A program made the translations under genes and the position numbers. From Fimbriimonadales bacterium (GTDB lineage Bacteria; Armatimonadota; Fimbriimonadia; Fimbriimonadales; JABRVX01), in contig BTVI01000001.1 in the NCBI GenBank assembly GCA_045862955.1, forward strand, positions 64,001-128,000: a stretch of 64,000 bases of DNA, written 5' to 3'. Positions 28,092-47,345 of the stretch are shown here, in pieces; positions within the stretch are counted from its first letter, which is position 1; every line of letters begins with the position of its first letter. The notes below the pieces were generated by a model. That model saw nothing but the letters and a program-made list of their open reading frames with translations. It was not told the origin of the DNA and made no database searches.

Positions 28092-29684
28092 ATGCCCACT
28101 GAGCCGAGCGACACCGAGCAGTTCGACTTCCTGGTAGTAGGCAGCGGAATCGCTGGTCTGACCTTTGCGCTGAAAGCAATCGGCCACGGGTCGGTGTGCG
28201 TAGTCACCAAACAGGACCTACCGGAGTCCAACACCGCATACGCCCAAGGAGGGATCGCTGCGTCGGTCGGGGAGATGGACTCGTGGTCGCTGCATGAACA
28301 GGACACGCTGACCGCTGGCGCAGGGCTGTGCGACCCCGACGCCGTCCGGCTCGTGGTACGAGAGGCGCCGCGGCTCGTCCACTGGCTGATAGATATCGGG
28401 GCGCAGTTCGACCGAACGCCGGGGCCCGACGGCCTTCCGCAGCTTGCTCTGGGACGCGAGGGGGGACATAGTCGCAATCGGATACTGCATTCGGCTGATC
28501 GCACCGGTTGGGAGATCATGCGGGCCTTGGCCGAAGCGACCCGCTCGCAACCGGACATTCTGGTGCGCGAGTACTGCTCCGCAGTTAGGCTATCGGTGAG
28601 AGACGGTGAGTGCCTGGGTGCATGGGTCTGGGATGCTCGCGCGCAACGGCTAGTGGCCATCCGTGCCCGCGCTGTGGTGCTGGCTACCGGTGGCTGCGGG
28701 CAGGTGTACCGTTACACGACCAACCCGCCTATCGCTACAGGGGACGGGATCGCGATCGCTCGCCGGGCCGGAGCGGTGCTTGCCAACATGGAGTTCATGC
28801 AGTTTCACCCTACCTCGCTCTACCATCCGCATGCCCGAGCCTTCCTCATCTCCGAGCGGGTGCGTGGGGAGGGCGCGCGGCTGATCAACGCAGAGGGCAA
28901 ACGGTTCATGGAAGGGCTGCACCCGATGGCAGAGCTGGCTCCACGCGACATCGTGGCGAGGGCGATAGACACCGAGATGAAGCGCACCGGAGCGGAGTGC
29001 GTGTATCTGGACATGTCCCACCTGCCTGCGGAGCGGATCCGTGACCTGTTCCCGATGATCTACGAGCGGTGTCTGTCGGTGGGTTTGGACATCTCGCGTG
29101 AGCCGATCCCCGTGACTCCTGCCGCGCACTACTCGTGCGGAGGGGTGTGGACGGACCTATGGGGGCGGACCAGCATCTCTCGGCTCTATGCGTGTGGCGA
29201 GGTCGCCTGCAACGGCCTGCATGGCGCAAATCGCCTTGCCAGCAACTCGTTGCTGGAGGCGCTGGTATTCGGTGAGCGCGCTGCAATCCAAGCCGCCGAG
29301 CTGCCTCCCGTTCAGGGGAACTTGCCCGATGAGGCGGGCGAACCGCTGCCCTCCGTCGGGCCGGACCCCGGTGCGGTTCGGACAGGAGTGCAGAACGTGA
29401 TGTGGCAGGACGTGGGCATCGTTCGGACCGATGTGGGGTTGCAGAGAGCACTGCTATCGCTTCAAGCGCTAGCGGGCAGTGTGGGCAGACCTGCCACCAC
29501 TGGCACGGTTGCCGAACAGATGGAAGCGGCCAACCTACTCACCTGCGGAGAGGCCATTGTGCAGTGCGCGTTAATGCGAAGAGAAAGCCGCGGCGGGCAC
29601 TTCAACGCGGACTGCCCGGATCGAGACGACCTTCGCTGGTCGCACCCGACGCTGCTGGGCCGATCCGAATCGCAACCGCAATAG
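28092..29684 (+). CDS. nadB: L-aspartate oxidase
   Basis: VVGSGIAGL, SNTAYAQGGIA, REGGHSRNRILH, QFHPT, HYSCGG, GLHGANRLASNSLLE and RRESRGGH. Confidence 0.95.
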   Translation: MPTEPSDTEQFDFLVVGSGIAGLTFALKAIGHGSVCVVTKQDLPESNTAYAQGGIAASVGEMDSWSLHEQDTLTAGAGLCDPDAVRLVVREAPRLVHWLIDIGAQFDRTPGPDGLPQLALGREGGHSRNRILHSADRTGWEIMRALAEATRSQPDILVREYCSAVRLSVRDGECLGAWVWDARAQRLVAIRARAVVLATGGCGQVYRYTTNPPIATGDGIAIARRAGAVLANMEFMQFHPTSLYHPHARAFLISERVRGEGARLINAEGKRFMEGLHPMAELAPRDIVARAIDTEMKRTGAECVYLDMSHLPAERIRDLFPMIYERCLSVGLDISREPIPVTPAAHYSCGGVWTDLWGRTSISRLYACGEVACNGLHGANRLASNSLLEALVFGERAAIQAAELPPVQGNLPDEAGEPLPSVGPDPGAVRTGVQNVMWQDVGIVRTDVGLQRALLSLQALAGSVGRPATTGTVAEQMEAANLLTCGEAIVQCALMRRESRGGHFNADCPDRDDLRWSHPTLLGRSESQPQ

Positions 29685-31305
29685 GCCGTTGCCGCTCCGG
29701 TACCGGAACCATCCACTTGCCCGCTGCGCCTCTCGCGACGCTGGTCTCGAGACCATCCACCTCTACCGTCCGGACGCGGGAGCCGTCTGGACCTCCGATA
29801 GCGAAGGCGGGCCCAGGCGCGAGCCTCAACCGGACCACCGACGCGTTGTCGGCATCGTACTCTGCCCGCAGTAACCGACCGAGGGGCGGATGTTCCAGGA
29901 CTAGTGGGGGCTCATCGCCCTTTGGAAATCGGGGAGCGGCCAATGCGAGTCGGGCCGCAAGGTAGCGAACCCGGTCGAAATCACGAGGCTGCCAACGCAC
30001 CAACAGCGCCCGCGCGGCGACATCGGAACACTGGGAGAGGAGCTTCGCGTGCGGCAGTCGGCCCTCCGGCATCGGCAGCAGAGTTGCCCAGTCCATGTGC
30101 AGAGCCACGATGGCGAGACACCGAGCGAGGGCATCCTGCCAAGCGGCATCGGGGCCGCACCAGTCGAGAGCTGCGAGCAGGAGCGCGGCAGCCTCCGTGT
30201 GCTCGGCTAGGTCTGCGCCTCGCGCACGGATGAGCGTAGGCACGCCTCGGCGGGTAATCGGCTCGGTCCAATCCTGCCACGACGCCTCCTTCGCCAGCTC
30301 CGTCGCAAGGGCGCGCAGACGGTTGCGGAGCAGCTGCTGATCGTCATCGGTCAGTAGGAACCGGAGGTCGTAGGCATGTAGGTAATCCGCGACAGAGCGC
30401 GCGGTGCGCATCGCCTCCGCCGCCTCGCTGCGGCGTGCCACATTGGAAGGCTCCACCAACGCCGACGGTGGCGCCAGCGAGTAGCTAGCCGACCCCGACG
30501 CCAGAACACGGAGCGTTCCCTCGGCGGTCTGAATATCGGCGAGTCGGGAAGCCGATGCGGGTGGCGCTTTGGCCACGACCGCGGGCGGTACGAGCCCCCA
30601 AGCCTCGGTGATCGCGAGGCGCCCAGTTTCCGGCTCCCATCGGAGCTTCGGCTCGCCGCTCGGCTGCGATTTGGCGAGTACATCGGCGATTGGTGCGACC
30701 CGCGCAGCGAGGGCCCCCAGATCGGCCGCACCACCGGATGCCACGTGCTCGATCCCCAACGGCGCGAGTAGGCGGACCCATCCGAGCCTCTCTGCCTCGA
30801 CGCGCAGCACCAGGTCACCCCCGGTACGGACAAGCAACACCTCGCGGGGTGGGCTGGAAAAACAGATGGCTAGGCACGGTGCATCCGGACTGCCCGACAG
30901 CAGCAGCCACGGCTGGTCGGTCGGCGCGGGCACACCTTCGCCAACGCTGCCACCGGGCCAGGTGAGGAAAGCCTTGTCCCACCCGTTTATTCGCAGGTTC
31001 ATGGTCGTTGCGAAAGCGAGGTCGAGAGCCGGCAGGGCCACATGCAGCCGGAGCTTTTCGGGCCCGCCTGTAGCACCACCTCCCGCGATGACCTTTTGCA
31101 GGCAGCTTGTGCTAGAAAGCACCGCCCCGCGCACGGGAGCGGCGAAGCGGAAGTCCGGCCCAGCAGTCCGGAAGCGGAATCCATCCCGCTCTACGATGAA
31201 GCAAGGGAGTGTATACGGGAAGGTACCACTGAGCCTACCGACGGCTACGACCTCTGCATCGGCCCCAGCCCAGAGAAGCCCTAGGAGCGCGAGCACGAAG
31301 CTCAT
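29602..31305 (-). CDS. Hypothetical exported protein, last gene of the minus-strand operon
   Basis: 567-aa ORF with signal-like N-terminus, 11 bp after the upstream gene; 3' end overlaps nadB convergently. Confidence 0.65.
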   Translation of the reverse strand: MSFVLALLGLLWAGADAEVVAVGRLSGTFPYTLPCFIVERDGFRFRTAGPDFRFAAPVRGAVLSSTSCLQKVIAGGGATGGPEKLRLHVALPALDLAFATTMNLRINGWDKAFLTWPGGSVGEGVPAPTDQPWLLLSGSPDAPCLAICFSSPPREVLLVRTGGDLVLRVEAERLGWVRLLAPLGIEHVASGGAADLGALAARVAPIADVLAKSQPSGEPKLRWEPETGRLAITEAWGLVPPAVVAKAPPASASRLADIQTAEGTLRVLASGSASYSLAPPSALVEPSNVARRSEAAEAMRTARSVADYLHAYDLRFLLTDDDQQLLRNRLRALATELAKEASWQDWTEPITRRGVPTLIRARGADLAEHTEAAALLLAALDWCGPDAAWQDALARCLAIVALHMDWATLLPMPEGRLPHAKLLSQCSDVAARALLVRWQPRDFDRVRYLAARLALAAPRFPKGDEPPLVLEHPPLGRLLRAEYDADNASVVRLRLAPGPAFAIGGPDGSRVRTVEVDGLETSVARGAAGKWMVPVPERQRPIAVAIRIGPAASGATSEGRLDPGSPR

Positions 31306-31316
31306 CGTTGCACGGC

Positions 31317-33254
31317 CTAGAACGGTGCAGCCAGCATCTCGATGCCGAAGCGCCGATCAATGCTGGACCAGCGTAGGGCAATCTCGCGGTAGCCGAGGCG
31401 GTAGCCGAGCAGGAACGAGTGATCACGGAACGTGGACCCCGGGCCGTCATCCCAGGTATAGCCGAATCCCACGCGCCACAGCTTCGAGAGGCCGATGGAC
31501 GCATCACCGAATAGGGTGGTCGCATCTTTGTCCAGGCTGCGGATTGCGTACACGCTGGCGGAGAGCGAGCCCGCGTTGGCCACCAACTGGGTGCTGAGCC
31601 GGTGCATCCCGAAACTGGAGACGCCGAACTGGTTGCGGTTGTACTCGTAGTTCAGGGAGAGCGAGGCGGTGGGACCGAGCATGTAGGAGGAGCTGACCGT
31701 GGCGAGGACAGCCAACCCGTCCCCTGCCCCGCGCCCCCATAGCTGGGTGAGCACCAAGCCGGTGCTCAGCGAGCCGCCTGCCACCTGCATGGGCACCGTT
31801 CTGGCCCGGTAGCGCAGGCCGTAGCCGCGGCGAGTCGTCATCCCCTGACCTGCATCGTATTGCTGATAGGTCGCGGTAAGACCCACACTGTGATAGGCGG
31901 TCTTTCCGAAGAACGGGATGGGGGTCGTCTCTAGCGAAAGGTCCGCCCGCCGGTCGGAGGTCTGGGTCCCGCGCAGGGCCGTCCGACCCGAGGCGGACAA
32001 CGACGCAGAGAAACCGTCGAACAGTTGGGAGAGCTGTGCGAAGCCTGCGAGGCTCTCGTGGCGGGGAGAGTCGAGCAGGAAGAAGCCGTCCAGCCGGTCG
32101 CCGAATCGTTGGTTGTGCCTAAGCGTAACGCCCCAGCGATCAGGCGACAAGTCGCTCAACGTGAAGTCACCCGAGTAGGCCCAACCGTCTGAATACCGGC
32201 TCACCCAATCTAGCGTAGTTCCTCGAGAGCTGGTATACGCCCGCCCTGCGGCGTGCTGCGAGCGCAAGCGCAGCGAGTTGGACTGCCGCGGCCCGAGGCT
32301 CAGGTAGTAGGGCAGGTCCAAGACCAGGCCGTTCTGGTTCACGCCGAACATCTGCTCCGACACCAGCGCTCCGGGGCGCGTAAGATCGAGGGCGTAGTGC
32401 GGCATCGTGAGCACTCGATTGCTCCCGACATAGACGCGGGCGCCGTTGAAAAGCGCTTCCCTGCCCGGATTGACCACCACTCGACGAGCGACAATCACGG
32501 GTTGCGGTCCGAACAACTCGGTAAAGCGAAAGTCGTCGTAGCCGGCAGGGCGGCCCGCTTCACTCGCATCGGTCCCCTGCAACTGCACGAAGACCGCCCG
32601 GCCTTCCTTTTCGACTACGGCGACACCCGTGCGAGAGCGCAGGTTGTACGCGAGCTGCAGTGCCTCCAGCTGGGACGAGCCGACCCGAAGAATGGCGTTG
32701 TATGCGATCACGGAAAGGGGATCGAGGTCCAACTGGAGGTCGTCTGCTTCGATACGGATGGACTGGTACTCCACGTGCGCTCCACGGTCCGGCCCGGTAG
32801 CGGCAATCATGCGAAGCTCGACGTGATAGGCGAGATAGGAGGAGCCAGTCACATCCAGGAACGAAGCGACCTTGCGCAGCTGTGCTGCGTCCGCTACGAA
32901 CTCCACTTCGATGTCCGCAACGGCGCGGTAGCCGGTGACAGAAGCAGTGATCTTCGACCGACCGGGCACGCTGGATGCGACGAGAATACCACGAGCAACA
33001 CCGCCCGAGGTGGCCACAGCGGGCTCCCGGAACTGTCCAAGCGACGCGGTGAAGGAAACGAGCGTACCATCGGGCACGTATCGCCCGGCCATATCGCGAA
33101 CCGTCGCGCTTACGGTTAGGGTGCTCCGCGCGTCCGCAGGAGCGGCTTCGGGGTAGACCGATAGCTCTACGGCTGCCAGGTCCTGCGCGGCCAATGGCCA
33201 CAGACAGCAGAGGAGAACGAATGCGACCAGCGTCCGAAGGGCCTTATGGGCCAT
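31317..33254 (-). CDS. Ig-like (Big_1/invasin) domain + LptD/OstA-like region + predicted outer-membrane beta-barrel
   Basis: Signal peptide; APADARSTLTVSATVRD…VPDGTLVSFTASLG (Big_1); IEADDLQLDL (OstA-like); amphipathic strands; C-terminal Phe. Confidence 0.65.
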   Translation of the reverse strand: MAHKALRTLVAFVLLCCLWPLAAQDLAAVELSVYPEAAPADARSTLTVSATVRDMAGRYVPDGTLVSFTASLGQFREPAVATSGGVARGILVASSVPGRSKITASVTGYRAVADIEVEFVADAAQLRKVASFLDVTGSSYLAYHVELRMIAATGPDRGAHVEYQSIRIEADDLQLDLDPLSVIAYNAILRVGSSQLEALQLAYNLRSRTGVAVVEKEGRAVFVQLQGTDASEAGRPAGYDDFRFTELFGPQPVIVARRVVVNPGREALFNGARVYVGSNRVLTMPHYALDLTRPGALVSEQMFGVNQNGLVLDLPYYLSLGPRQSNSLRLRSQHAAGRAYTSSRGTTLDWVSRYSDGWAYSGDFTLSDLSPDRWGVTLRHNQRFGDRLDGFFLLDSPRHESLAGFAQLSQLFDGFSASLSASGRTALRGTQTSDRRADLSLETTPIPFFGKTAYHSVGLTATYQQYDAGQGMTTRRGYGLRYRARTVPMQVAGGSLSTGLVLTQLWGRGAGDGLAVLATVSSSYMLGPTASLSLNYEYNRNQFGVSSFGMHRLSTQLVANAGSLSASVYAIRSLDKDATTLFGDASIGLSKLWRVGFGYTWDDGPGSTFRDHSFLLGYRLGYREIALRWSSIDRRFGIEMLAAPF

Positions 33255-33276
33255 CCCCTGCCCCTAGCACTTCGCC

Positions 33277-33990
33277 TCAGTCTCCGAAGAGCAGCAGCGC
33301 CAGCACCACACCCGCGGCGGTTAACAGAAAGGCGGTGCGTGTGAAGCCGCCGGATATCTGTTTCCTCCGCTCGGGTGAAGACGAATCGAGGACTGCCTTC
33401 CCTATTCCAAGCGGCTCCGAGATCTCGGCCATCATTTTCGTCGCGGCATCGTCGATCGCCGCAGTCATGACGCCGACTTCGTCACTCTGCGAGTCCCCGC
33501 TCGCCTTGCCGGTCACCGCGGCGCTGACGACGACGGTGTTTTCTTCGACGTTGTACACCTCGAGGCTGACGACGATACTGCCGCTCCGTGTTGCCTCATC
33601 GTAGTGGTAACTCTCAATGGAACCGGCGAGCGCAAAGGGCGTGCGGAGGATACGTCCTACCTCGACAGCGCGCCATGTGTCGCCCTCCGGGACGTTGAAG
33701 GGTGGTTCGGCCTTCGAGAGCGGCAACCGTCCGTCTTCCAGCGCAAGCTGAATCGGGGCGGAGCGGCGGCTATAGTAAAGCGGCCGATACTCGCGCGTCG
33801 CCTCCAGCTTGGCGAACAGGGAGGAACGAAGCAACTCCGCGGGGTGGAAGTCCTCGGGAGGCGCCAGGTCGTCCGGTACTCCGAACTCGAACACCGTAAT
33901 CGGGGTCTTCATATACCCCTTCTGGGCGAACACACCCGAGGCCGCCAGGATCAGCAGTAGGACTGCCGCCGGCCACATCCGATACCGCAT
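33277..33990 (-). CDS. CsgG/TolB-N-like exported protein with C-terminal hydrophobic anchor
   Basis: Signal peptide; ITVFEF…AVEVGRILRTPFALAGSIESY…VSLEVYNV; tail TAFLLTAAGVVLALLLFGD. Confidence 0.55.
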   Translation of the reverse strand: MRYRMWPAAVLLLILAASGVFAQKGYMKTPITVFEFGVPDDLAPPEDFHPAELLRSSLFAKLEATREYRPLYYSRRSAPIQLALEDGRLPLSKAEPPFNVPEGDTWRAVEVGRILRTPFALAGSIESYHYDEATRSGSIVVSLEVYNVEENTVVVSAAVTGKASGDSQSDEVGVMTAAIDDAATKMMAEISEPLGIGKAVLDSSSPERRKQISGGFTRTAFLLTAAGVVLALLLFGD

Positions 33991-34012
33991 GTCTTCTCGT
34001 CCTCCTTGAAGC

Positions 34013-36802
34013 CTAGCGCGTCAGCACGTGCGGTCGGACCACTCGTGCGACCTGTCCGTCCTCAGTGACTGCCGCGACCTCGATCACGTACGTACCCGGG
34101 GGCATCGAGACGCCGCTTGTGTCACGCGTGTCCCAGACGTGCTGCTGCACTCCGCGAGTTTCCGCCCTGCCTGCCGCAAGCGTCCTCACCACCTGGCCCG
34201 AAGCGCTGAGGATGCGCACGGTGGTATTAGCTTCTGCGCTAAGCGAGTACTGCACGTTGACACCGCCCACACCGCGGGTCTGCGTGACGTTTAGGCCGGT
34301 GATCATCACCTTAGAAGGCGCGGCCGGCGTCATCTCCAGCTTGAAGCGCCTCTGGCCCTCCGTCATCTGGAAGGTGTAAGCGGAGACGCTGCGCAGGTTG
34401 CGCACCACGCCCGTCTGCAGGTCGGTCAGACGGAACCCCACGTCCTTGGGCAACTGCGAGAGGTTGGGCCAGGTGAGCGTCACCTCACCGTCCCGATCGG
34501 AAGTCACCGTGAAGTACCAAGTGGCCTCGCGGTCCGAGGCTGGCCGAATGTCTTGCGCGTATGGGCCCGAGTCTGCCCCCCAATCGTTGTTTTCGATGGC
34601 CACCCTCAGCCTGCCGTCCGGTGCGGGCGGCGGCTTGGGCACATCATAGCGGTCGATCCCCACTGACGCACCTTCGGTTACACCGAAGAAGGTCTTGGTG
34701 TCGGCGGAACCGTTCGAGCGCGCGGCAACCTGCAGGCGGAAGTGGCCGGGGCGCGGTGTCCACGGATCGGGTCCAGCCGCCCGCGGCGAGCCACCGACGC
34801 CTACGGTGAAGACCGGCGGCCAGATGACATCTACGGGCCGAGTTGCCGTGATCCGCACCCAGTAGCCGCGTGCAGGCTCGATCGGTGTGGTGAGGTCTTC
34901 GGTGAAGGTGTACTCACCGAGTGCCTTGTCCCACCGATACAGCACGCCGCGAATCCAGCCGAGGCCGATGGCCTGCTCCAGGGAACGTGCCTGGCTAGGA
35001 TCGTCCGCACCAACGAATACGAGCTGCCCGAATGGAATGGGATACAGCCAGGGATTGCCAATCATCCGCCAGCCGGGCTGCAGATTGATCTTGAAGTCAC
35101 TGGTAACCTGCCCCGGCGGTGCGCTGGCTCCCTCCAGTGCGAAGACCGTGTCCTCGCCTGCGTCCAACCAGATCCCTTCGCCCCGAACAGCGTTCGTGAC
35201 AGGGATGTAGCGGCCGGTGGTCGGGTCAACACCGATCGTCCGCAACCCCGGAGTGCCGAAGATGGCCTCGAAGCGGGTGTCACTGAATACGAACGGCAGC
35301 GTGACCATGTCGTATCCGTCGGTGACCTTCATCTTGTTCACCGCAGGGATGTAGATGCGGTTCGTGACACTCTTGGCATTCGCAGGGGGCGGGCTGACGA
35401 TGACGCGGTACTCGACGATACCGTTCACTGTGCCGTCGGCGACCACGTTCCACTTGACCGTAGTCGAGCGCCCAGCGGCGATGCGAGGGATGATCTTTTG
35501 CAAAGTCTCGCCGGGAGCTACCGAGAGGCCGGGGGGCAGGGAGAGCAACACGCTGACGTTCGTGAGGTCCACCTCGCGGTCAACGACCGAGTACCCGTTC
35601 GCCACGAGGGCAGAGATCGTGAAGGGGCTCGGAGCCAGGCTGTTCGGGCTGCTGGGATCGAACTGCAAGGCTCGGGGGGCTTCGGTCGTAACGGCCACTG
35701 GCACCTCGATGTTACTAGCCGCATTCGCCGAGCTCATGTACTGCACGATACGTCTCCCGGGCCGCACCCCGAGGTCGCCGGGCACGTTGACGGGAACGTT
35801 GATGGGATTGTGGAACACCGCATAGGACGGGTCGATGATCGGGAGGTCCGGTACCGTGAAGCCGTTCCATTGGACTCCCTGCAATAGGCGCCCCACGGAC
35901 ATGAACTCGATTCGATCGGCTGTGGTCAGGTCCGGGTGACCGGAGTCGGGTTTGAGCCAGTGCCGGAAGCTAGGATAGGGGTCGCTCTGTCCCCAATACA
36001 CGTCGAAGTATGGGGGGAACTGCGCAGTGCCGACCGAAGTTCGGTCTGCGATGTAGTCGGTGCTTCTCGGTCGCAGTCCGGGAATCAGCACGTACAGATT
36101 GTCGAGGAACCCGCGTCGGTCGCCATTTACGAACTGCCCGGGCGCGCGCTTTCGCATTGCGGTCCAGTGGCCGAAGCGCATCCCGATCTGAACGGGGTTT
36201 TCCGTGAAGTTATAGAAGTCCCACTGGAAGCGCCACGTGTCGCCTAACACGTCGATGCGCAGGTCCACCCAGACGTTGGGACCTCCGAAGTCCCACAGCC
36301 CCCGAATGTATGCGCCGCTGGCACCGATGTACGGCGCCAGACGCCAAGAGGTTCCCTCGCCGAACACCTTGTCGGTGGTAGTTTCCCCCTCGATCACGCG
36401 GATCGTCGCATAGCACCAATCGCCACCGGCGAAGGGGTAGCCGAAGGTAACAGCACAGTCGTCATCGGCTGTCGTCTGCTCGGACCCGGTGCCATACCCG
36501 AACGCGAACCTACCGCTGCCATCGGCGGAGATCGTCGGGTCGAAGCAGCCTTCCTCGGAAAAGTTGTAATTCTGCTCCGGGTCCCCCGTGGTGTCGTCGG
36601 CATCGTTGCCCCACGTCACCTGTCCGACGCTATTAGTAAAGATGTTGATGACCCCGTTCGTGAGCCCCAACAGGTTCTCCAAGTAATTTCCGGCGAACGG
36701 TGCGTCACCAAGACAGCCACGCCACGTCTGCGCAAGGGCAAACGTCGGCACGAGCATCATAGCGGCGATTAGGACCTGCGCGACCTTACGTTGGACAGCC
36801 AT
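34013..36802 (-). CDS. Secreted protein with NEW3/Ig-like domain and shared C-terminal module ending in FlgD-Ig
   Basis: Signal peptide; LSLPPGL…VKWNV; LQPGWRMIGNPW; WDTRDTSGVSMPPGTYVIEV…HVLTR. Confidence 0.8.
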   Translation of the reverse strand: MAVQRKVAQVLIAAMMLVPTFALAQTWRGCLGDAPFAGNYLENLLGLTNGVINIFTNSVGQVTWGNDADDTTGDPEQNYNFSEEGCFDPTISADGSGRFAFGYGTGSEQTTADDDCAVTFGYPFAGGDWCYATIRVIEGETTTDKVFGEGTSWRLAPYIGASGAYIRGLWDFGGPNVWVDLRIDVLGDTWRFQWDFYNFTENPVQIGMRFGHWTAMRKRAPGQFVNGDRRGFLDNLYVLIPGLRPRSTDYIADRTSVGTAQFPPYFDVYWGQSDPYPSFRHWLKPDSGHPDLTTADRIEFMSVGRLLQGVQWNGFTVPDLPIIDPSYAVFHNPINVPVNVPGDLGVRPGRRIVQYMSSANAASNIEVPVAVTTEAPRALQFDPSSPNSLAPSPFTISALVANGYSVVDREVDLTNVSVLLSLPPGLSVAPGETLQKIIPRIAAGRSTTVKWNVVADGTVNGIVEYRVIVSPPPANAKSVTNRIYIPAVNKMKVTDGYDMVTLPFVFSDTRFEAIFGTPGLRTIGVDPTTGRYIPVTNAVRGEGIWLDAGEDTVFALEGASAPPGQVTSDFKINLQPGWRMIGNPWLYPIPFGQLVFVGADDPSQARSLEQAIGLGWIRGVLYRWDKALGEYTFTEDLTTPIEPARGYWVRITATRPVDVIWPPVFTVGVGGSPRAAGPDPWTPRPGHFRLQVAARSNGSADTKTFFGVTEGASVGIDRYDVPKPPPAPDGRLRVAIENNDWGADSGPYAQDIRPASDREATWYFTVTSDRDGEVTLTWPNLSQLPKDVGFRLTDLQTGVVRNLRSVSAYTFQMTEGQRRFKLEMTPAAPSKVMITGLNVTQTRGVGGVNVQYSLSAEANTTVRILSASGQVVRTLAAGRAETRGVQQHVWDTRDTSGVSMPPGTYVIEVAAVTEDGQVARVVRPHVLTR

Positions 36803-36820
36803 ACTCGTCGTAACTCCTTC

Positions 36821-39730: not shown

Positions 39731-39778
39731 CTAGACCACCTCGAATGTCCGAGTTCGCACACCGTGTGAGCTGCCAAC

Positions 39779-41539
39779 CTATTTCCCCGGCGAAGGGGGC
39801 GGCGGCGGCTCGTCAACCGGAGTGAACTCCCATGGCTCAGAGAAAACGAACCGATTGCCATTCTTATCCGGCACAGGTCCGGGCGAGTCGTTCAGGTTTC
39901 GTGCACCCACCCTCCAGTAGAGCCGCTGGGCTCCAGGGAACAATCCGCGAATGTCGAGCGTGTCACTACTCAGTATCCCGCTCTGCTGGGTCGTCGGCAG
40001 GAAGAACACGTTGCGCACCGCTGTTCCTCGAGGGAACGTAAGGTCGCGCGATACCTGCACCACGTAGTAGTTAGCGCCGGGCACCGCTCGCCACGAGAAG
40101 CGAACGCTCTTCAAGTTCACGCTTTCCGACCCATTGACCGGCTGTTCGAGCCCCACCTGTTCTAGGACGGTAGCCGTGCCGCGGGCGTTCACCGGATCGC
40201 TCTCGAAGAAGCAGTCCGTCTGCTGGTCTCCTCCACCACCGGGAAGGTCAATAGACTTTACGCGGTAGACCAGCGAGAGCGAGTAGTTGTAGGTGCGCCC
40301 CGGGACCAGGGCCACTTCCGTCCCTTCCTCAGTGCCAGGGTCCTCGATGCAGTCGGTACCGGGGCCGATTAGCTCGATCTGGCGCCAGTTGAATGCGAGT
40401 GGCGCGGTGTCGTCAATGAAGAAGTTCTCGGTTCCGAGCACTACACCGATGGGCGCGTTCGCCACGTCGTTCCGCCAGATATGCCACTCTACACGGGTGT
40501 AGTTTGCGATTGCGAAGAGGTTCGGGTTCCAACTAACCTTCACACCCGACCCCCGAGCGGGGTCGAATATGGCTTCCGTCGTGAGGTCGTTGGTCGCCGT
40601 ATTGCTCCCGCCTCCTCCCGGACCCGTGATGAGAGCCAGGACGAGCCCGACCACGAGCGCGGTTACGAAAATATTGCCGAGGTTCCTCTGTTTCGGTGCC
40701 CCTCGGATCACCTTGGTTCCGACAATCTTGAGTTCCTCGACGGGGAAGATGGCCCTAGCTTTGTCCCCTGGCCGAACACCTTTCGTGCTTTCGACCACGG
40801 CGGCTTCGGCATCATCGGCGGAGACTTCGATGACCTTGATAGTAGCCACATAGTCACCGTAGCGGAGGACGAGCATCTCCATGCCGGGGCGGATGCCTTC
40901 GCGCGCACCCTTATTCATCAAGACTTTCTGGGGGTTCGCGAACAGGATGGTAGCATCCGGGATTTTCAAGCTAGAGATCGTGGTGACGGCCTCGAGGGCG
41001 GCAAGTTGGATGGCCTCTTGCACGAGAGCGTCTTCGCCACCGGTCATTCCGACCCGGCCCGTGCTTTCACCGACCACGCCACTGGCGCCACGAATAGCCC
41101 TACCCGACGCGGAGTCGTACACGTACACACTCATCACGACGCGCGCCCTGAGGGGGTTCTTCGTGATCAGTACTTGGTCCACGGTGCCAGACACGATGGC
41201 CTCGCACTGCAACTCCTGCCCGATCTTCAGGTACTTCAGACGATCGAGCGGAGGCGCCATGCCCAGGTCTTTGAGCGTCTGGTCCACGGTGTTCTTTGGC
41301 AGCACGTCGTATCGCTGGCTCTTGCTCAGCTCGATGCGGACGCTGTCGGTTGCCATGGCTGCGGTCGCTGCGCCGCCGTAGTCGGATCGGTTCACGAACT
41401 CGACCACTGCCCAGCTGGGTAGCTCGACCTGCGCCTGCGCTCGTCCGGCGGAGAACCCCTGGTAGCAAGTCAGGAGCATGCTTACCACAAGCACTCGGCT
41501 GATAGTGCGCGCCAATGGCGTATTGATGAAACGTCTCAC
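39779..41539 (-). CDS. CsgG-like + FlgT-C-like + FN3-like exported protein with an internal hydrophobic segment
   Basis: WAVVEFVN…KIGQELQCEAIVSGTV…VYDSASG; MNKGAREGIRPG…IKVIEV…VRPGD; IFVTALVVGLVLALI; FSWRAVPGANYYVVQVS. Confidence 0.7.
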   Translation of the reverse strand: MRRFINTPLARTISRVLVVSMLLTCYQGFSAGRAQAQVELPSWAVVEFVNRSDYGGAATAAMATDSVRIELSKSQRYDVLPKNTVDQTLKDLGMAPPLDRLKYLKIGQELQCEAIVSGTVDQVLITKNPLRARVVMSVYVYDSASGRAIRGASGVVGESTGRVGMTGGEDALVQEAIQLAALEAVTTISSLKIPDATILFANPQKVLMNKGAREGIRPGMEMLVLRYGDYVATIKVIEVSADDAEAAVVESTKGVRPGDKARAIFPVEELKIVGTKVIRGAPKQRNLGNIFVTALVVGLVLALITGPGGGGSNTATNDLTTEAIFDPARGSGVKVSWNPNLFAIANYTRVEWHIWRNDVANAPIGVVLGTENFFIDDTAPLAFNWRQIELIGPGTDCIEDPGTEEGTEVALVPGRTYNYSLSLVYRVKSIDLPGGGGDQQTDCFFESDPVNARGTATVLEQVGLEQPVNGSESVNLKSVRFSWRAVPGANYYVVQVSRDLTFPRGTAVRNVFFLPTTQQSGILSSDTLDIRGLFPGAQRLYWRVGARNLNDSPGPVPDKNGNRFVFSEPWEFTPVDEPPPPPSPGK

Positions 41540-41591
41540 TTCAGTTTCTCCTCCGTAATCCGGATTCTCATACCGATCCTTGGTGTGCGCC

Positions 41592-44500
41592 TTAGCGCTT
41601 CAGCACAACAGGCGTCACGGCGCGAGCGATCTGGCCGTCTTCGGTCGTGGCTCGCACTTCAATCGTATACATGCCGGGCGGCACGGACACGCCGCGGCCA
41701 TCTCTCCCATCCCAGGTCACTGACTGCACGCCGGCCGACGCTACTAACCGATTGTCGATCACACGCACCGGCTTGCCGGACGGCGCGATCACGGTCACCT
41801 GCACGCTCGCCTCGGTCGAAAGAGTGAAGCTGATCGAGGCGGCACCACTCCGAGTCGCCTGAGCGACGGGGTTGGTGATACGTAGCACTCGATTCGCCGA
41901 GATCGACTCGATGCGGAACTTGCGCACTGCACCGTCCGAAGGCACGAAGCTGTAGGACGAGGTTGACCGCATGAACACACGCTTGCCGGCTTGCTCGTCC
42001 ACCAGAACGAGGTTCAGATTGCGAGGCAGTTGGCTCATCGCGGGCCAGCGCAGTGTTGCCTGCGTCCCAGCGCCGCTTGTCTCCACGACGAAATTCCACA
42101 CTTGTGTTCCGGCGACCGGGCCGCGAACGTCGGAGACATACCTACCCGATCGTGCACCCCAATCCGTGCGAGGTACGTACACACGTACATACTTTTCTTC
42201 ATCGGAGGGCGGACGCGGGAAGTCGTATCGGCTGTCGAAGCCGTCCGTCGCGCTGTTCGACACCCCGATGAACGCTGCCGTATCCTGAAGCCCCGTCTCT
42301 GTGTAGACGTGGATGGGCAGACGCCACCCATCGCTTAAGCGTGACCAATCCGACCCGTCGGGTCCGTATGCCCTTCCGTCACCACCTGGTGCAGAGCCAC
42401 CAGACGGATCCACTAGCAACGTTACGTCCTCATAGGCCAGGAACCATGCACCCTGATACTGTCCGAGTGTTAGGCTCTCGTCCTTCACCAGGAAGCCAGA
42501 CTGCATCTTCCAGATGATAGGCACTACCCAACCGGCAGCCACTGCCTCGTTATATCCGAGCACTCCTCCCGGCCCACTGACGAAGCTGTTACCCAGCCGC
42601 ACATCGAACTGGAACGGATCGCCGATGAGGTTCCACCCGGCCTTGATAGCGATTGGATAGATGTTATTCGGGTCGGCCGGCGTGCCTGGCGTCGTGAGCG
42701 CCATGTTCGTGTCGTTAGATAGGAAGTAGCCTCGGCCTAGGCGGAACCGGTCTGCCGGTGCCATTGGGTAGTTGAGGAACAGCTGCCTGTCCACGTCCCA
42801 AGCCGTCAGCTTGAAGTTGGGCCCGCCATTGAGCAACTGCTTCGGGTCTTCGGTCAGGTAGTTGAACGGAACCGAGATCAGGTTAGTAAACCGAGCGAAG
42901 TTGGCCAGCGGCGTCAGAATGATGTCGTCAGCGTACTTCGGCAAGCCGTCCGGCGGGGTATCGCCGTCCGGTACCGTCACGGTGATAGGCGCCGGCGGCC
43001 GGAATCCGGTCCCAGTGGTATCCACATGCACCGTGTACGCATTGATGTTATCACCGAGCTTGCAGCCAGGCGCGGCGAACTCGTAGTTGTAGACGTTGCC
43101 GCCCGAGGTGATCGGGGGCGAGAACGTCACCGTGTTGCACACCGTCACGTTGTTCAGCTTAACCAGCACGGGCAGACCAGCGGGTGCGGCCTCGTAGCTG
43201 CTACCGCTGAGTCTCGTCTTCACGTAGCCGCGGAGTGTGCGAGGCGCAACTGGCGACAACTGAACGTCCTGTGTGATGGTGAACCCTGACGGCACATTCA
43301 CCGAGATATCGTTGCGGGTCCGGAATCCGAACGCCGACACCACTAGAGTGTAGTTGCCTGCGGGAAGGTCTATGCCGCTCGCCGCGAAGTCGTACTGACC
43401 ATTCGCGTCGCTCAGCACGGGACCATACGTGACTTGCTGCCCGAAGCGCGTGATGCGTGCGTTGAGCTGTGCACCAGGGATGACTGGGTTTCCAGCTTCT
43501 GTCGAAGTCACGGTCCCTATGAGGTTCCCAGGCGGTCTAAAAATGATGAACGTGTCGGAGCCGGGTGGGTCCGGGTTGCCGGTATTGATTGTGGTCGTCA
43601 CCCCGGCATCCACCACTACCGTAGCGGATGGCGGCTGGCTGGTATCCGAGAATCCAATGGCGGTACCATCTACCGTCACCGTCCAGTTGCCGCGGTTGCA
43701 AGTGATCAAGAAGCGACCCTCGCTGTTCGTGAGACCAGAGACAGGCGGAATGGTCGGGAAGTCCGATGTCAGTGTGACCGTAACGTTGCCCACTGGCGAG
43801 CCGTTCTCGTCGACGACGCGGCCGGTAACGGAACCCGGCGGCTCCTTTGTAATGATCAGGTTGATAGTATTAGCATCTTCCTTGTTGACCTGTCCACCGT
43901 GGATGCCCAGGATCACTTCGGGGTGCTGAATGCGGAAGCCGGGCTTAACCGCATCTACGAAGTAGTGACCCGGCAGCAGGCCGGTGATCACATACTCACC
44001 ATTGGAGTCTGTTAGGGCCGCTCCCAGAACTTGGCCTACCGTCGTCGGATCCTTTCCATTGCCACTGATCCAGCGCACCAGGACGCCGGGCTCGGGCTTC
44101 TTCTCCAAAGTATCCGGGTCGATCGCCTCGACCTTGCCATACGCGCGGGCCGTTCTCATCCAGCAGAGCATGCCGTGGAGCTGCTCATAGCGCCGACTGT
44201 CCGACCAGGCCACGTCCCCATACAGCGGTACCGTAATGACGCGGTGCGAGGAGTGCACGCCCTCCAATCCGTAGGACAGGAAGACCGTCTTCGCCCGCGA
44301 TGCATGGGTAGCAGCTACCGAAGCGAACCCACCCGACGCATATCGGTATGGTCGCCACACCGACGGAATCGAGATCGTACCGACTGCGTTGATCGAATCG
44401 ATCCAGAGCTGATTCCACGCACCGTCAATGGTGACCGACCCGGCAACTAACACACCCGGAGTCTGGAGCTGCAGACCGAAGGGGGTCTTCACTAACTGCG

Positions 44501-47240
44501 CAGGATCGGCCAAGAAGTTCTGCGTGGACCAATCGTCCAGCTCGCCATCGGGCCTAGGCCAGTGGTAGTCCCATGGTCCGAGGACAACTGGGTCACCCGG
44601 TCCACCTTCCACGACGTCGCCGGAGTCGATCAACCGATGGCGTGAGGCGTTATAAGTGCCCACTTGGATATCCGGTCCGACGTCGTCCACATACTGCACT
44701 TTGAAGTAGTTGGTCAGGAAGGTGCTGGGTATCTGACCACCCTGTGTTAGTGCCCAGGCTATATCCTGGCCACTAAGGACGAGACGGCCTCCCGCATCGA
44801 GATACTGCTGAACGACCTGTCGCACCTCTTGTATGTGGATACCGACGCGCTCGGTCCACAGGTCCCCCGCGTATGGTGCCGCCCACACTACCGCGCGTTC
44901 CGCCACCAGCACTTGGCGGGTCTGCAGCGGGTTGTTCGGATCCACCTGTTGATCGAGTCGTGGCAGGTACTGCGCAAGGGCGGTCAGCGGGATGGGACCC
45001 CGGCACTGAGTTCGCCAGATGTCGGCTTCTTGATAAACGGCGGTCGGGCCGAGGGTGTCGAGCGTCTCGCCCGTTCTGGGGTACGGCTCACCCCATGGGG
45101 CAGGCAGATAGAACTTGTCGCGAACGCCAGCCGTGGTATAGAACCATGCGTTCTCTCCATGCGTGGCGGGGTTGCGCAACCAATAGCTTTCTACCGGTGC
45201 CCATGTCGTACGTGCGAACAGGCGGCCGAGCAGCGGATCGAAGTTCAGGTCTTGCGCGAAGAGCTGACCTGCTATGTAGTCCGCAACGAACAGGATCGGG
45301 TTTCTAGCAGCGAAGAGCTGCGTAGTAAAACCGGAGATGTTGTCGTAAACGAGCTGATTGCCTGCGACGTCCTCTACGAGCAGGTCGAGGTAGAAATCGC
45401 TCGGCTGCAGGGGTGTCACCCATGTGTTCGTGTACCAGTTGTCTCCTGCAACCTCACCTTCCGGCTCGTGGCCCCCTTCGCTAACCGGTCCGTCGTCGAA
45501 AAGCTGGAGGCCGTCTCTCAGATCGGATTCCCCCACCGTGCCGACGAACAGTACCCAAGGGAAGGCATAGTTGTAGGTATATGGATTCACTACCTCTTGC
45601 CCGATCTCGACGAACAGGTCCATCTTTTGGCCGGTTGCCGGGAAGGCACGTTGGCCGAACGGATCCGGCAGGTCTCCGCGGAGCTTGAGGTAAAGGCGAT
45701 GCTCAACGCCTTCGCTGTCCACCTCGGCGCCGTCCGGGTCCTTGAACTGAGCGTACACGTGCTTGACGCCGGTCTGGAGGTCGGTGACCCACGCTTTGAT
45801 TTTGATCGGTTGCCCAGGCATGCCCTCGCGTGGTTCGACGATGGGCAACACCTCGAGCATGGGCGGCGACGAGTCCACGAAGAGCCCGATCCAAAGGTCA
45901 TGGAATCCGTCTTTCTGATTCACGGGTGGGTTCGGCCTGTCCGAAACATAGACTAGCCAGTTGAGGCGGAATGCCTCCGTCGGATCCGTCGCACCCTGCT
46001 TACCAGTGGTATCTCCCGCGGGGTCCGCCGTGTAGGCGATTGGGGTATTGAGCGCGTTGTCCTCAGGGACCTCGGGGCTGAACTGATAGATATCGTAGCT
46101 GTTACCAACGCTGTTAGCCGCCACACGGATGCTCAGCTTCCCGTCATACCGAGCTTTGCGCGTAGAAGCGAAGAGGATTCGTGCGCCATCGCTCCGCCAG
46201 ACGGGGTCGCGGTCTTTGGAGGGCGTGCCACCAGACTGGAAGTTGGTCCAAGGCATCGCACCATCCAACGGCATTCCCAACACGTACATGTACAAGCGCT
46301 CACCGGTGGCTGTGCGGCGCGTGAAGATGATGCGCGAGCCGTCAGGCGACCAGTCGGGGTCCACGTCATCCGCACCCGGGGGTGGCTCGGTTAGCTGCCG
46401 GGTGAAGGCCCCGTCCGGATAGGGCGAGCCGTCCGCCCGAGAGCGATAGAGTTTGTACGGCCCACCGGTTGCAAGCCGGGCCGCAAACACCACCTCGGTC
46501 CCTCCGGGGGAGAAGGCAGGGTGGATGCTGTCGCCGAGGGGGCGCACCGGATCGTAGTTCACTCGGATTGGAGGGACGTTGGTGCTGAGATATCGGACGT
46601 AGATATCGAAGTTACCCGACCCGACCGTGCTGCGCCGCGAGTACACGATAGCATTCGAGGCCAAGTTGCTGTCTGGATAGCGCTGCTCGCCGAAGCGTTC
46701 CTCCGGTAGGTTCGGATCATTGCCCGTAATCTGCTGCGCGTTCAGCCCCTCCATATCACATCGCCAGATATGGTACGCCTGGTTTACACCGTCCCACACG
46801 AGACGCCCGGTCGAATCGACGCCGCTCGCATTCGAGGAGAACCAAAGACGTGTATCGCCCTGGGCAAACTTGGGCTCTAGAACGTCGGCGGCAGTCAGCG
46901 TGATGTCTCGGTCTTGAGGCGGGCCGCCTCGGGTAGTGCCTTGCCACCGTGCGGCGAGGCTCTCCTTCGAGAATGGCAGATGCCTGGCGATCTCGAACGG
47001 GGTCTGTATTACCGGGAAGGTGACCACGTTCTTCTCCGGCACCCCCGGAATACGCTCCACCGACTGCGCTGGAGGAAGTTCCTTCCGATACTGTTTCGTT
47101 CGGACGAGACCGCTCCGGTCGGCGAGCTTCGCTGCGTCCCCGGGCGGGGGAGGGGTCTGCGAGAAAGATGAACCAGGAGAAGCGAATAAGAGCGCGGCGC
47201 TGAGAATAACGCCAACCACCGTAGCGCCTTTAGGTTTCAC
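41592..47240 (-). CDS. Large secreted protein: PD40/TolB-like propeller, carboxypeptidase-regulatory-like repeats and shared C-terminal module ending in FlgD-Ig
   Basis: GTG start after GGAGG; HPAFSPGG, DPDWSPDGSRIIF, DPVWRSDG; TDSNGEY, TNSEGRF, SDANGQY; WDGRDGRGVSVPPGMY…VVLKR. Confidence 0.85.
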   Translation of the reverse strand: MKPKGATVVGVILSAALLFASPGSSFSQTPPPPGDAAKLADRSGLVRTKQYRKELPPAQSVERIPGVPEKNVVTFPVIQTPFEIARHLPFSKESLAARWQGTTRGGPPQDRDITLTAADVLEPKFAQGDTRLWFSSNASGVDSTGRLVWDGVNQAYHIWRCDMEGLNAQQITGNDPNLPEERFGEQRYPDSNLASNAIVYSRRSTVGSGNFDIYVRYLSTNVPPIRVNYDPVRPLGDSIHPAFSPGGTEVVFAARLATGGPYKLYRSRADGSPYPDGAFTRQLTEPPPGADDVDPDWSPDGSRIIFTRRTATGERLYMYVLGMPLDGAMPWTNFQSGGTPSKDRDPVWRSDGARILFASTRKARYDGKLSIRVAANSVGNSYDIYQFSPEVPEDNALNTPIAYTADPAGDTTGKQGATDPTEAFRLNWLVYVSDRPNPPVNQKDGFHDLWIGLFVDSSPPMLEVLPIVEPREGMPGQPIKIKAWVTDLQTGVKHVYAQFKDPDGAEVDSEGVEHRLYLKLRGDLPDPFGQRAFPATGQKMDLFVEIGQEVVNPYTYNYAFPWVLFVGTVGESDLRDGLQLFDDGPVSEGGHEPEGEVAGDNWYTNTWVTPLQPSDFYLDLLVEDVAGNQLVYDNISGFTTQLFAARNPILFVADYIAGQLFAQDLNFDPLLGRLFARTTWAPVESYWLRNPATHGENAWFYTTAGVRDKFYLPAPWGEPYPRTGETLDTLGPTAVYQEADIWRTQCRGPIPLTALAQYLPRLDQQVDPNNPLQTRQVLVAERAVVWAAPYAGDLWTERVGIHIQEVRQVVQQYLDAGGRLVLSGQDIAWALTQGGQIPSTFLTNYFKVQYVDDVGPDIQVGTYNASRHRLIDSGDVVEGGPGDPVVLGPWDYHWPRPDGELDDWSTQNFLADPAQLVKTPFGLQLQTPGVLVAGSVTIDGAWNQLWIDSINAVGTISIPSVWRPYRYASGGFASVAATHASRAKTVFLSYGLEGVHSSHRVITVPLYGDVAWSDSRRYEQLHGMLCWMRTARAYGKVEAIDPDTLEKKPEPGVLVRWISGNGKDPTTVGQVLGAALTDSNGEYVITGLLPGHYFVDAVKPGFRIQHPEVILGIHGGQVNKEDANTINLIITKEPPGSVTGRVVDENGSPVGNVTVTLTSDFPTIPPVSGLTNSEGRFLITCNRGNWTVTVDGTAIGFSDTSQPPSATVVVDAGVTTTINTGNPDPPGSDTFIIFRPPGNLIGTVTSTEAGNPVIPGAQLNARITRFGQQVTYGPVLSDANGQYDFAASGIDLPAGNYTLVVSAFGFRTRNDISVNVPSGFTITQDVQLSPVAPRTLRGYVKTRLSGSSYEAAPAGLPVLVKLNNVTVCNTVTFSPPITSGGNVYNYEFAAPGCKLGDNINAYTVHVDTTGTGFRPPAPITVTVPDGDTPPDGLPKYADDIILTPLANFARFTNLISVPFNYLTEDPKQLLNGGPNFKLTAWDVDRQLFLNYPMAPADRFRLGRGYFLSNDTNMALTTPGTPADPNNIYPIAIKAGWNLIGDPFQFDVRLGNSFVSGPGGVLGYNEAVAAGWVVPIIWKMQSGFLVKDESLTLGQYQGAWFLAYEDVTLLVDPSGGSAPGGDGRAYGPDGSDWSRLSDGWRLPIHVYTETGLQDTAAFIGVSNSATDGFDSRYDFPRPPSDEEKYVRVYVPRTDWGARSGRYVSDVRGPVAGTQVWNFVVETSGAGTQATLRWPAMSQLPRNLNLVLVDEQAGKRVFMRSTSSYSFVPSDGAVRKFRIESISANRVLRITNPVAQATRSGAASISFTLSTEASVQVTVIAPSGKPVRVIDNRLVASAGVQSVTWDGRDGRGVSVPPGMYTIEVRATTEDGQIARAVTPVVLKR

Positions 47241-47297
47241 TGGGCACTCGACCTCCTCAATCACCGTCGCCGGTAACGCCTCCATGCGTAACGCGGG

Positions 47298-47326
47298 ATT
47301 ATAGCATAACCCCTTCTGCGTTGCAC
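47298..47326 (-). promoter_or_regulatory. Promoter of the secreted-protein operon
   Basis: Minus strand reads GTGCAA-17 nt-(TGc)TATAAT. Confidence 0.65.
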
Positions 47327-47345
47327 TTTCGAGGCGGGCGGCATC

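Follow-up and report, generated by a model that had tools for sequence, protein, structure and literature searches.

An operon built on an LptD paralogue is a candidate surface-protein translocon of the Armatimonadota

Within a 64,000-nucleotide stretch of a Fimbriimonadales genome (hereafter the window), seven consecutive genes, A to G (Table 1), include a second member of the LptD family. We regard it as an evenly balanced proposition that this operon encodes an LptD-paralogue translocon for surface proteins, in which the beta-taco of gene F is bound by gene B and for which export is as yet a prediction; the machine likely places proteins, not LPS, on the cell surface. The Armatimonadota, which are diderm Terrabacteria, export many large proteins and have cultured members; a near-universal operon centred on a second LptD provides them with a concrete candidate surface route. 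That LptD-family barrels move proteins is a recent finding, which would here be extended to a dedicated paralogue.

Table 1. Features of the operon, with positions in the window.
Feature	Position	Strand	Description
Gene A	41592-47285	(-)	1897 aa; TolB-like PD40 propeller, unknown domain, three CarboxypepD_reg Ig domains, tail T1-T2-T3
Gene B	39779-41539	(-)	Signal peptide, PelC/CsgG-fold domain, FlgT_C-like barrel, basic linker, hydrophobic helix, two Fn3, Pro-rich end
Gene C	36821-39730	(-)	S8 subtilase (137-406) and tail T1-T2-T3
Gene D	34013-36802	(-)	N-terminal region without known family, and tail
Gene E	33277-33990	(-)	Short paralogue of gene B N-terminal domain; basic residues and hydrophobic helix at end
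Gene F	31317-33254	(-)	LptD paralogue; Big_1 Ig (29-121), beta-taco (~133-290), barrel of ~21-22 strands, C-terminal Phe
Gene G	29602-31305	(-)	567 aa, signal-like N-terminus, no family; accessory
TGcTATAAT extended -10 promoter-like motif	47298..47306	(-)	No -35 match

The original prediction, made from the DNA letters alone, had placed seven co-oriented genes behind a single TGn-TATAAT promoter, and both elements are present: all seven open reading frames lie on the minus strand, separated by gaps of 52, 48, 18, 22, 22 and 11 bp from A to G, and the motif that precedes them, TGcTATAAT, is the single copy in the window (18 copies genome-wide). The true start of gene A is probably the GTG at 47240, which is preceded by GAGGAGG. 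Judged by eye, all seven proteins carry the signal-like N-termini ascribed to them, and a regular-expression search found no lipobox in any. The operon encodes no energy source, an observation that speaks against protein export. Four RNA-library runs yielded short scattered contigs of low depth across A-F and nearly no coverage of gene G; because DNA carry-over into these libraries is possible and a silent control is lacking, the coverage of A-F does not serve here as proof that the genes are expressed. In two studies the RNA contigs end at 47330/47331, on the upstream side of the TGnTATAAT motif, which hints weakly at another transcript start or at read-through. Gene G is confined to 8 of 40 fetched loci, all of them with the same gene order, so that the phylum-wide unit comprises A-F.

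Gene F had been proposed to be a beta-barrel, and AF2 indeed predicts one (pLDDT 84), with an Ig domain and a beta-taco preceding a barrel of ~22 strands. Its profile matches LptD (7omm) with an E-value of 5e-10 across positions 151-439, ranks 1-15 of a Foldseek search with the model are all LptD, and the beta-taco aligns with LptA (Z 9.9, rmsd 2.5, 99 residues). By its modelled fold, gene F is thus a member of the LptD family, with a beta-taco followed by an outer-membrane barrel, and its Ig domain appears, from alignment ranges, to sit in the barrel lumen as the protein's own plug, in place of LptE. No column of the alignment holds cysteine in at least 25% of the 40 gene F rows, and the taco-to-barrel cysteine pair of LptD is absent. 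This pair is common but not universal, since F. johnsoniae LptD lacks it. Counted from the secondary structure of the model, the barrel has 21-22 strands, about four fewer than canonical LptD, for which a recent report gives ~26 (10.64898/2026.10.03.756453); a barrel of this size (~22 strands) leaves little room for folded cargo with several domains, a further observation that speaks against protein export.

Both B and E had been called CsgG-like, and the call holds at the level of fold, through alignment members and structure, but not as a Pfam CsgG match of either protein itself. PF03783 is matched by 4 of 27 alignment members, and the gene B model superimposes on PelC (Z 13.3, rmsd 2.6, 132 residues) and on CsgG 6lqh (Z 12.3, rmsd 3.6, 135 residues). 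The PelC/CsgG fold occupies residues 40-192 of gene B and is followed by a FlgT_C-like barrel (193-265), likewise part of the original prediction and recovered by structure comparison of the model, then by a helix at ~287-305 and two Fn3 domains; by eye, the hairpins of the model seem too short to form a CsgG pore. The internal hydrophobic helix of B and E, which had escaped earlier notice, is present in 117 of 131 gene B homologues, with K/R more frequent before it than after it in 98 of those 117, and a regular-expression search of all 131 found no lipobox. Gene E aligns with gene B in hhalign (98.8%, E 6e-17) and is present in 21 of the 40 loci; it too lacks a lipobox, and its long variants in some relatives continue after the helix into Fn3 and Big_1 repeats or stalks. 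An apparent E-F fusion was rejected, as it proved to be gene E with Big_1 repeats. Few outer-membrane proteins are known to be anchored by a single alpha-helix, and B and E are candidates for a family of this kind.

Complex modelling predicts that gene B binds the beta-taco of gene F, with a score of 0.62 against 0.01 for the best control; one of three runs scored 0.00. Of 157 solved pairs, 116 reach the mark used for such scores, as do 2 of 215 mismatched ones; this mark is roughly applicable here. Contact agreement between the runs is at least 0%, the partner pLDDT is at least 73, and the residues of the predicted interface show no higher conservation than the remainder of the domains, which includes core residues (1.66 vs 1.97 bits in B, 1.47 vs 1.83 in F).

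BLASTP supports the homology claimed for the C-termini of A, C and D (identity 30-35%, E 1e-37 to 1e-53), though what they share is not a small tag: in each protein the tail spans ~400 residues (370-470) in three parts, arranged T1-T2-T3 in A and C. The gene A-like N-terminal cluster comprises 19 proteins and that of gene D 25, the gene D N-terminus having no PDB match below E 0.3. Genomes encode 1-15 tail proteins each, the source genome only 4, and those outside the operon carry S8/S53 proteases, propellers, beta-helices and Big_1 + DUF11 repeats; some are, to judge from their domains, adhesin-like stalks. The idea of cargo with a T9SS-like sorting tag survives in part: the tail is shared, but its FlgD-Ig end is absent in family f30, where it would be dispensable, and no tail was detected in family f26 (0 of 5 genomes), in which B and F are adjacent. 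Tails were also undetected in 5 of 11 f6 genomes that retain gene B, and the persistence of gene B in both families argues that the machine is independent of tails. Some T1 look-alikes belong to clusters in which Chloroflexota or Archaea are the most frequent taxa, so that T1 does not necessarily act as a signal for export across the outer membrane; others occur in Fidelibacterota clusters, one of them with Por_Secre_tail in 44% of its members. Against TIGR04183 (type A CTD; cut-off 23 bits), C and D score 14.2 and 14.3 bits, with gene A unlisted; 2 of 54 tails match weakly (best E 0.004), and a genome search gave 0 matches, its control being silent as well.

In the mechanism that we propose, all parts would reach the periplasm via Sec, as their N-termini suggest. 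Gene F would fold as taco and barrel, with an Ig plug whose replacement of LptE is suggested by the alignment ranges. B and E would be single-pass proteins, the helix crossing the outer membrane so that the PelC-fold domain lies on its inner side and the Fn3/Ig domains on its outer side, and the periplasmic domain of B is predicted to dock on the taco. By analogy with the lipoproteins handled by LptD in Borrelia and Bacteroidota, the lumen and lateral gate of gene F would pass and insert the helix-anchored B and E. In the least supported step, A, C, D and the scattered proteases and adhesin-like proteins may be exported by the complex or docked on it through T1. A broader claim, which we hold only tentatively and consider rather doubtful, is that of a new, phylum-wide type of secretion, in which a self-plugged LptD paralogue and its helical partner export folded proteins that are not lipidated, reach 4,500 residues and are selected by T1, and insert single-pass outer-membrane helices; if true, this would give the Terrabacteria a counterpart of type IX secretion made from LPS-transport parts.

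The same pair might instead serve a lipid. On this account, unlikely but to be taken seriously, F-B would be a second Lpt-type translocon, carrying either a modified LPS or a glycolipid other than LPS, and the tail proteins would be surface or periplasmic proteins that assemble on one another or on B/E and take a different route across the membrane. Gene F retains an LptA-like taco, a lipid-carrying fold that leaves room for a lipid substrate; B-F persists where tails are undetected, and a third LptD-like paralogue (C92) indicates that the family has diversified. The neighbours of gene F are, however, protein-display genes, with lptF/G in none of the 40 gene F loci, and some route across the outer membrane is required for the B/E passengers and the giant tail proteins, T2SS being missing in 7 of 14 genomes (PMC11535203); the model of our own T2SSK search also matched monoderm controls.

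Quite improbable is a scheme in which the tail proteins are fixed subunits of the machine, either a dome outside the cell or an attachment module like that of T9SS (C PorU-like, A PorZ-like), which serves other cargo such as dockerin-tagged or PEP-CTERM proteins. The orthologues of A, C and D are conserved and keep a fixed order, which fits a subunit role as well as a cargo role; of the original notion of a dedicated machine with its cargo, the machine gains support from the predicted B-F contact, and the assignment of A, C and D as cargo is borne out in part. Gene D is the one tail protein of many same-order genomes, left even in the shortest such operons, the tail end matches PorU 6za2 (E 0.007) and PorZ 5m11 (E 0.09), and in the source genome dockerin-like C-termini number 75 and PEP-CTERM-like ones 41, vs 4 tails. 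These PorU and PorZ matches are nevertheless limited to the FlgD-Ig domain, gene C is missing from many operons, several relatives' included, and is S8 rather than C25, and the scattered tail proteins look like passengers.

Gene F could also be the cell's own LPS exporter within a mere envelope gene neighbourhood, but this is very improbable. A longer LptD (family C46), missing from the original prediction, was found in 88 of 101 genomes; it coexists with gene F and adjoins lptF/G in the source genome, as it does in 8 of 11 short loci of relatives. Its profile matches 8h1r (E 6e-14), a single-sequence PDB search having returned no match, and it holds Cys165 in 12 of 12 rows and Cys693 in 10 of 12. 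Because this longer, cysteine-pair LptD lies beside lptF/G elsewhere in the genome, gene F, which has no conserved cysteines and about four fewer strands, is probably not the LPS exporter. Its LptD-like profile and fold, the presence of LpxC and LpxB, and weak Pfam LptE matches in 3 of 15 gene E members (best E 0.003) fit such a role; moreover, the long LptD had no match in 13 of the 101 genomes, and a single-query search by family gave 0 of 4 in f26 and 1 of 5 in f8, where gene F could be the sole LptD.

The synteny on which the original prediction leaned proved to be phylum-wide. Gene B is found in 197 and gene F in 184 of 201 Armatimonadota genomes, gene B lies upstream of gene F, at most 25 kb away, in 86 of 90 same-contig cases, and across the 40 fetched loci the gene order is maintained while flanking genes vary. 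This linkage, together with a predicted B-F binding that exceeds controls, leaves only a slender chance that A-G are a loose envelope-gene cluster carried behind rpsA-coaE with no common machine, a view favoured by the presence of rpsA and coaE before the block in 11 loci each, by 6 of 40 loci in which gene F is unlinked from B/E/tail genes, and by the complex run that failed to score. Outside Armatimonadota, gene B look-alikes (CsgG + Fn3) score sub-0.9 only (Atlas), and a representative-protein search retrieved 670 proteins with E-values of 1e-30 or lower, without taxonomy. It is scarcely credible that gene B acts as a FlgT-like protein of the flagellar ring and that the FlgD-Ig tails belong to the flagellum: FlgT is the top Foldseek match of the gene B model (8z5n, 3w1e; E 3e-11), and the lack of flagellar genes noted for the window does not extend to the source genome, which carries flgI on another contig, but flgI is found in 112 of the 201 genomes, with 0 of 18 in f6, 0 of 8 in f14 and 0 of 6 in f8, and the occurrence of B and F is independent of flagella.

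The surface-protein translocon that we favour shares parts with several known systems. PelC and CsgG are lipoproteins that form rings. Gene B resembles the PelBC exporter and the CsgG/FlgT/PelC group (9h80, 5t0z, 6lqh, 3w1e) in the fold of its first domain and in its predicted pairing with a barrel; unlike PelC and CsgG, it is non-lipidated, carries Fn3 domains as well as a membrane helix, and would sit on the taco, not on the barrel rim, and the operon has no curlin or Pel genes. T9SS likewise combines a signal peptide with a C-terminal Ig-like domain on diverse passengers, whereas here the tails fall below the TIGR04183 cut-off, can dispense with the Ig end and are few per genome. A complete canonical T9SS elsewhere, which could have explained the tails, was not found: searches for SprA_N (0/5), GldN (0/5) and PorP_SprF (0/41) gave no signal in any control genome either and so do not show absence, and a published survey reports no T8SS or T9SS (T9SS in 0 of 14 genomes, Suppl. 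Data 13) and patchy T2SS in Armatimonadota (PMC11535203).

Gene F shares with the LptD/LptE translocon (7omm, 8h1r, 5iv9, 4q35) a beta-taco followed by a large barrel, and differs in its N-terminal Big_1 Ig domain, ~21-22 vs 26 strands, lack of conserved cysteines and coexistence with a canonical LptD, in an operon in which no lipoprotein LptE is recognised, gene E having a related fold but no lipobox. The closest parallels come from two reports, in which LptD exports surface lipoproteins in Bacteroidota, flanked by helical outer-membrane and taco-binding subunits (10.64898/2026.10.03.756453), and in Borrelia, as BB0838 (10.1101/2022.12.21.521298). As described there, the Bacteroidota translocon (LptN/P/Q/R/S/T) and BB0838 likewise use an LptD-family barrel for protein surface export, with taco-binding accessory subunits, an alpha-helical outer-membrane subunit and extracellular beta-sandwich subunits; those systems rely, on the same accounts, on a single LptD and lipoprotein cargo, whereas the Armatimonadota operon pairs a dedicated paralogue and C-terminally tailed proteins with non-lipidated partners of another fold.

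The seven co-oriented genes A-G constitute a real operon, phylum-wide as A-F, that is undescribed in the literature searched: no paper describing it was found in a library with few subscription journals. The predicted layout, with gaps of 11-52 bp between consecutive ORFs behind a TGn-TATAAT motif, was recovered in full. The encoded proteins carry Sec signal-like N-termini, as judged by eye, and no lipobox was found in A-G.

Operon features and their positions in the window
Feature	Position	Strand	Content
A	41592-47285	minus	PD40 + CarboxypepD_reg domains; FlgD_ig end above Pfam cut-off
B	39779-41539	minus	PelC/CsgG-fold domain, FlgT_C-like barrel, helix, two Fn3 domains (model)
C	36821-39730	minus	S8 protease; FlgD_ig end above Pfam cut-off
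D	34013-36802	minus	FlgD_ig end above Pfam cut-off
E	33277-33990	minus	paralogue of B first domain
F	31317-33254	minus	Ig domain, beta-taco, barrel (model)
G	29602-31305	minus	ORF of operon
TGcTATAAT motif	47306-47298		promoter-like; sole such motif in window, 1 of 18 in 3.36-Mb genome

In many relatives, as here, rpsA-coaE (window 47346-49563) sit ahead of the operon, which may therefore share a transcript with these housekeeping genes. The ends of G and nadB have 83 bp in common in a tail-to-tail overlap (window 29602-29684), and the gene order G-nadB-rex is found again in same-order loci.

At E 0.001, matches to F, the LptD-like barrel, occur in 184 of 201 genomes of the phylum, the weak ones possibly reflecting the Ig domain alone; at E 1e-15, a B profile finds matches in 197 of these 201. 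Among the matches listed for both, 120 genomes were available for linkage, 30 of them with the genes on different contigs; in 86 of the 90 left, B lies on the strand of F and no more than 25 kb upstream of it, bearing out the synteny looked for across Armatimonadota, the phylum indicated by Atlas cluster taxa. In 40 loci hand-picked from the 184 F genomes for long contigs and varied families, B, E or tail genes lie within 14 kb upstream of F in 34 and none does in 6; the commonest order is A-B-C-D-(X)-E-F, with E present in 21 loci and G in 8 same-order loci only. As related genomes are not independent, these genome and locus counts are descriptive and carry no statistical tests.

The F profile matches N. 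gonorrhoeae LptD (E 5e-10), and its AF2 model (40 sequences; pLDDT 83.8, pTM 0.75) predicts a barrel, as anticipated, of about 21-22 strands. In Foldseek, LptD structures fill ranks 1-15; VIA-align scores LptD level with other large barrels (5iv8 Z 13.9, rmsd 5.0, 314 residues), so that the family call rests on the order of taco and barrel. Residues from about 36 superpose in VIA-align on the plugs of TonB-dependent receptors, which suggests that the modelled Ig domain may occupy the barrel lumen. The source genome also carries lpxC and lpxB, lptA/B/F-like genes on contig C28 and, on C46, a longer LptD directly after an lptF/G gene. The profile of the latter matches LptD at E 6e-14, its family features a conserved Cys pair, and its type adjoins lptF/G in 8 of 11 short loci of relatives; because F has neither the conserved Cys pair nor an lptF/G neighbour, it is very likely a second copy with a dedicated role. 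With one query, the long LptD turned up in 88 of 101 genomes and was mostly missed in families f26 (0/4), f27 (0/2) and f8 (1/5). A third LptD-like protein, shorter at 532 aa (G000:C92:254-1852, L108) and with similar short matches in other genomes, is followed by a dockerin-tagged gene, and just downstream of the C28 lptA/B/F genes lies an SLH-domain protein ending in Phe (G000:C28:24862-26871, L109), which we take to be SlpA/OmpM-like.

The CsgG-like call for B is upheld by its model (27 sequences; pLDDT 85.7, pTM 0.49), whose first domain adopts the PelC/CsgG fold (PelC Z 13.3, rmsd 2.6, 132 residues), alongside a FlgT_C-like barrel with FlgT as best Foldseek match, a low-confidence helix at 290-304 and the two Fn3 domains; E scores as a paralogue of the first domain at 98.8%. 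From 150 B homologues, 131 were anchored on a motif and 19 dropped. Hydropathy reaches at least 1.6 in a 19-residue window at the helix site in 117 of the 131, and elsewhere in the mature chain in 10; Lys/Arg are more numerous before than after the helix in 98 of the 117. Given a cleaved signal peptide and the established positive-inside rule, this bias would not fit an ordinary inner-membrane anchor. Together with E variants of two genomes in which long Fn3 + Big_1 stalks follow the helix, it leads us to infer an outer-membrane location for the predicted B helix and a periplasmic one for the PelC-fold domain. A Pro-rich motif ends B (window 39779-39810), 64 of the 131 homologues and many E homologues, even E forms without Fn3. 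Apart from the operon, G000:C14:41063-41998 (L110) encodes a genuine Pfam CsgG + FlgT_C protein that lacks both the helix and Fn3.

Complex prediction with F(24-645) and B(38-310) scored 0.62 (runs 0.62, 0.71 and 0.00; best control 0.01), a mark that 116 of 157 solved pairs and 2 of 215 mismatched ones attained, counts roughly applicable with these alignments; contact agreement between runs is at least 0%, and partner pLDDT at least 73. The predicted interface would lie between the F taco (139-280) and residues 68-83 and 159-186 of B. LptE sits inside its barrel and PelC at the barrel rim, and we know of no solved complex arranged like B on the F taco, which would make memory of a similar complex a less likely origin of the prediction. 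Interface conservation is not above that of the rest of the domains; S159 and R162 of B, numbered as in a close homologue, are conserved in 86% and 80%, respectively.

The C-terminal region shared by A, C and D is homologous (30-35% identity), as originally predicted, and spans 370-470 aa rather than a short tag. It comprises T1 and T2, which match no family, and T3, an FlgD-Ig domain. At E 1e-20 its profile matches 111 of 121 genomes, from 1 to at least 15 times per genome; the source genome has four tail proteins. Tail proteins of family f30 end with T1 alone, so that the FlgD-Ig behind the proposed T9SS analogy is dispensable and T1 the common part; in three proteins T2-T3 scored and a T1 match was absent. 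Thirty off-operon tail proteins, sampled from 58 matches in five tail-rich genomes, carry S8 and pro-kumamolisin proteases, WD40/LVIVD propellers, beta-helices, Big_1, CARDB and DUF11 repeats, a range that looks cargo-like. A pure cargo reading is weakened because A, C and D are orthologous clusters in fixed order, because B-F persists in f26, where tails went undetected, and because T1 look-alikes occur outside diderms.

The fourth tail protein of the source genome lies off the operon (G000:C70:2395-5730, L106); downstream of it come two lipoprotein-like genes and an ORF whose start looks LptC-like, and its family is seen in four other genomes. Stand-alone T2-T3 proteins (L076:11972-12745, with its own signal-like N-terminus, and L032:6224-7048), together with a neighbouring 3689-aa protein that has internal FlgD-Ig repeats and a T1 end, show the tail parts to be separable. 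Genome-wide, dockerin-like C-terminal tags (75 ORFs) and PEP-CTERM-like motifs (41), of which window 25451-27163 gives an example, far outnumber the 4 tail proteins of the source genome.

The likeliest reading, held at about even odds, is that F and B are the core of a complex in the outer membrane putting proteins on the surface, in which F would supply lumen and lateral gate, B/E would serve both as subunits anchored by the helix and as display stalks, and tail proteins would be exported or docked via T1. Of this picture, gene content, conservation, homology and the separate LptD are observed, the folds and the B-F contact come from structure prediction, and the topology, the Ig plug, a protein substrate and the part played by T1 are inferences. 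The main rival, that F-B is a second lipid translocon, seems unlikely. A flagellar role is disfavoured, since flgI, although carried by the source genome itself, occurs in only 112 of the 201 genomes against 197 for B. Export of T1-tagged folded proteins by the surface-display complex can be put forward only tentatively; if true, it would define a new secretion system type.

The original prediction of a machine analogous to T9SS or curli and distinct from both can be set against known systems. TIGR04183 scored below cut-off on the tails, and family searches for SprA, GldN and PorP, run with no positive control, gave no matches. In PMC11535203, T8SS and T9SS are 0 in 14/14 genomes and T2SS is 0 in 7 of 14 (Suppl. 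Data 13), the diderm envelope has a 55-nm periplasm, and three genes labelled 'FlgD Ig-like domain' have RNA counts, one also appearing in proteomics. Overall, we class the operon among LptD-based translocons. Its nearest working analogues are Borrelia BB0838 (10.1101/2022.12.21.521298) and the expanded Bacteroidota LPS translocon (10.64898/2026.10.03.756453), and PelBC (PMC12141448) is the nearest barrel and PelC-fold pair to F-B.
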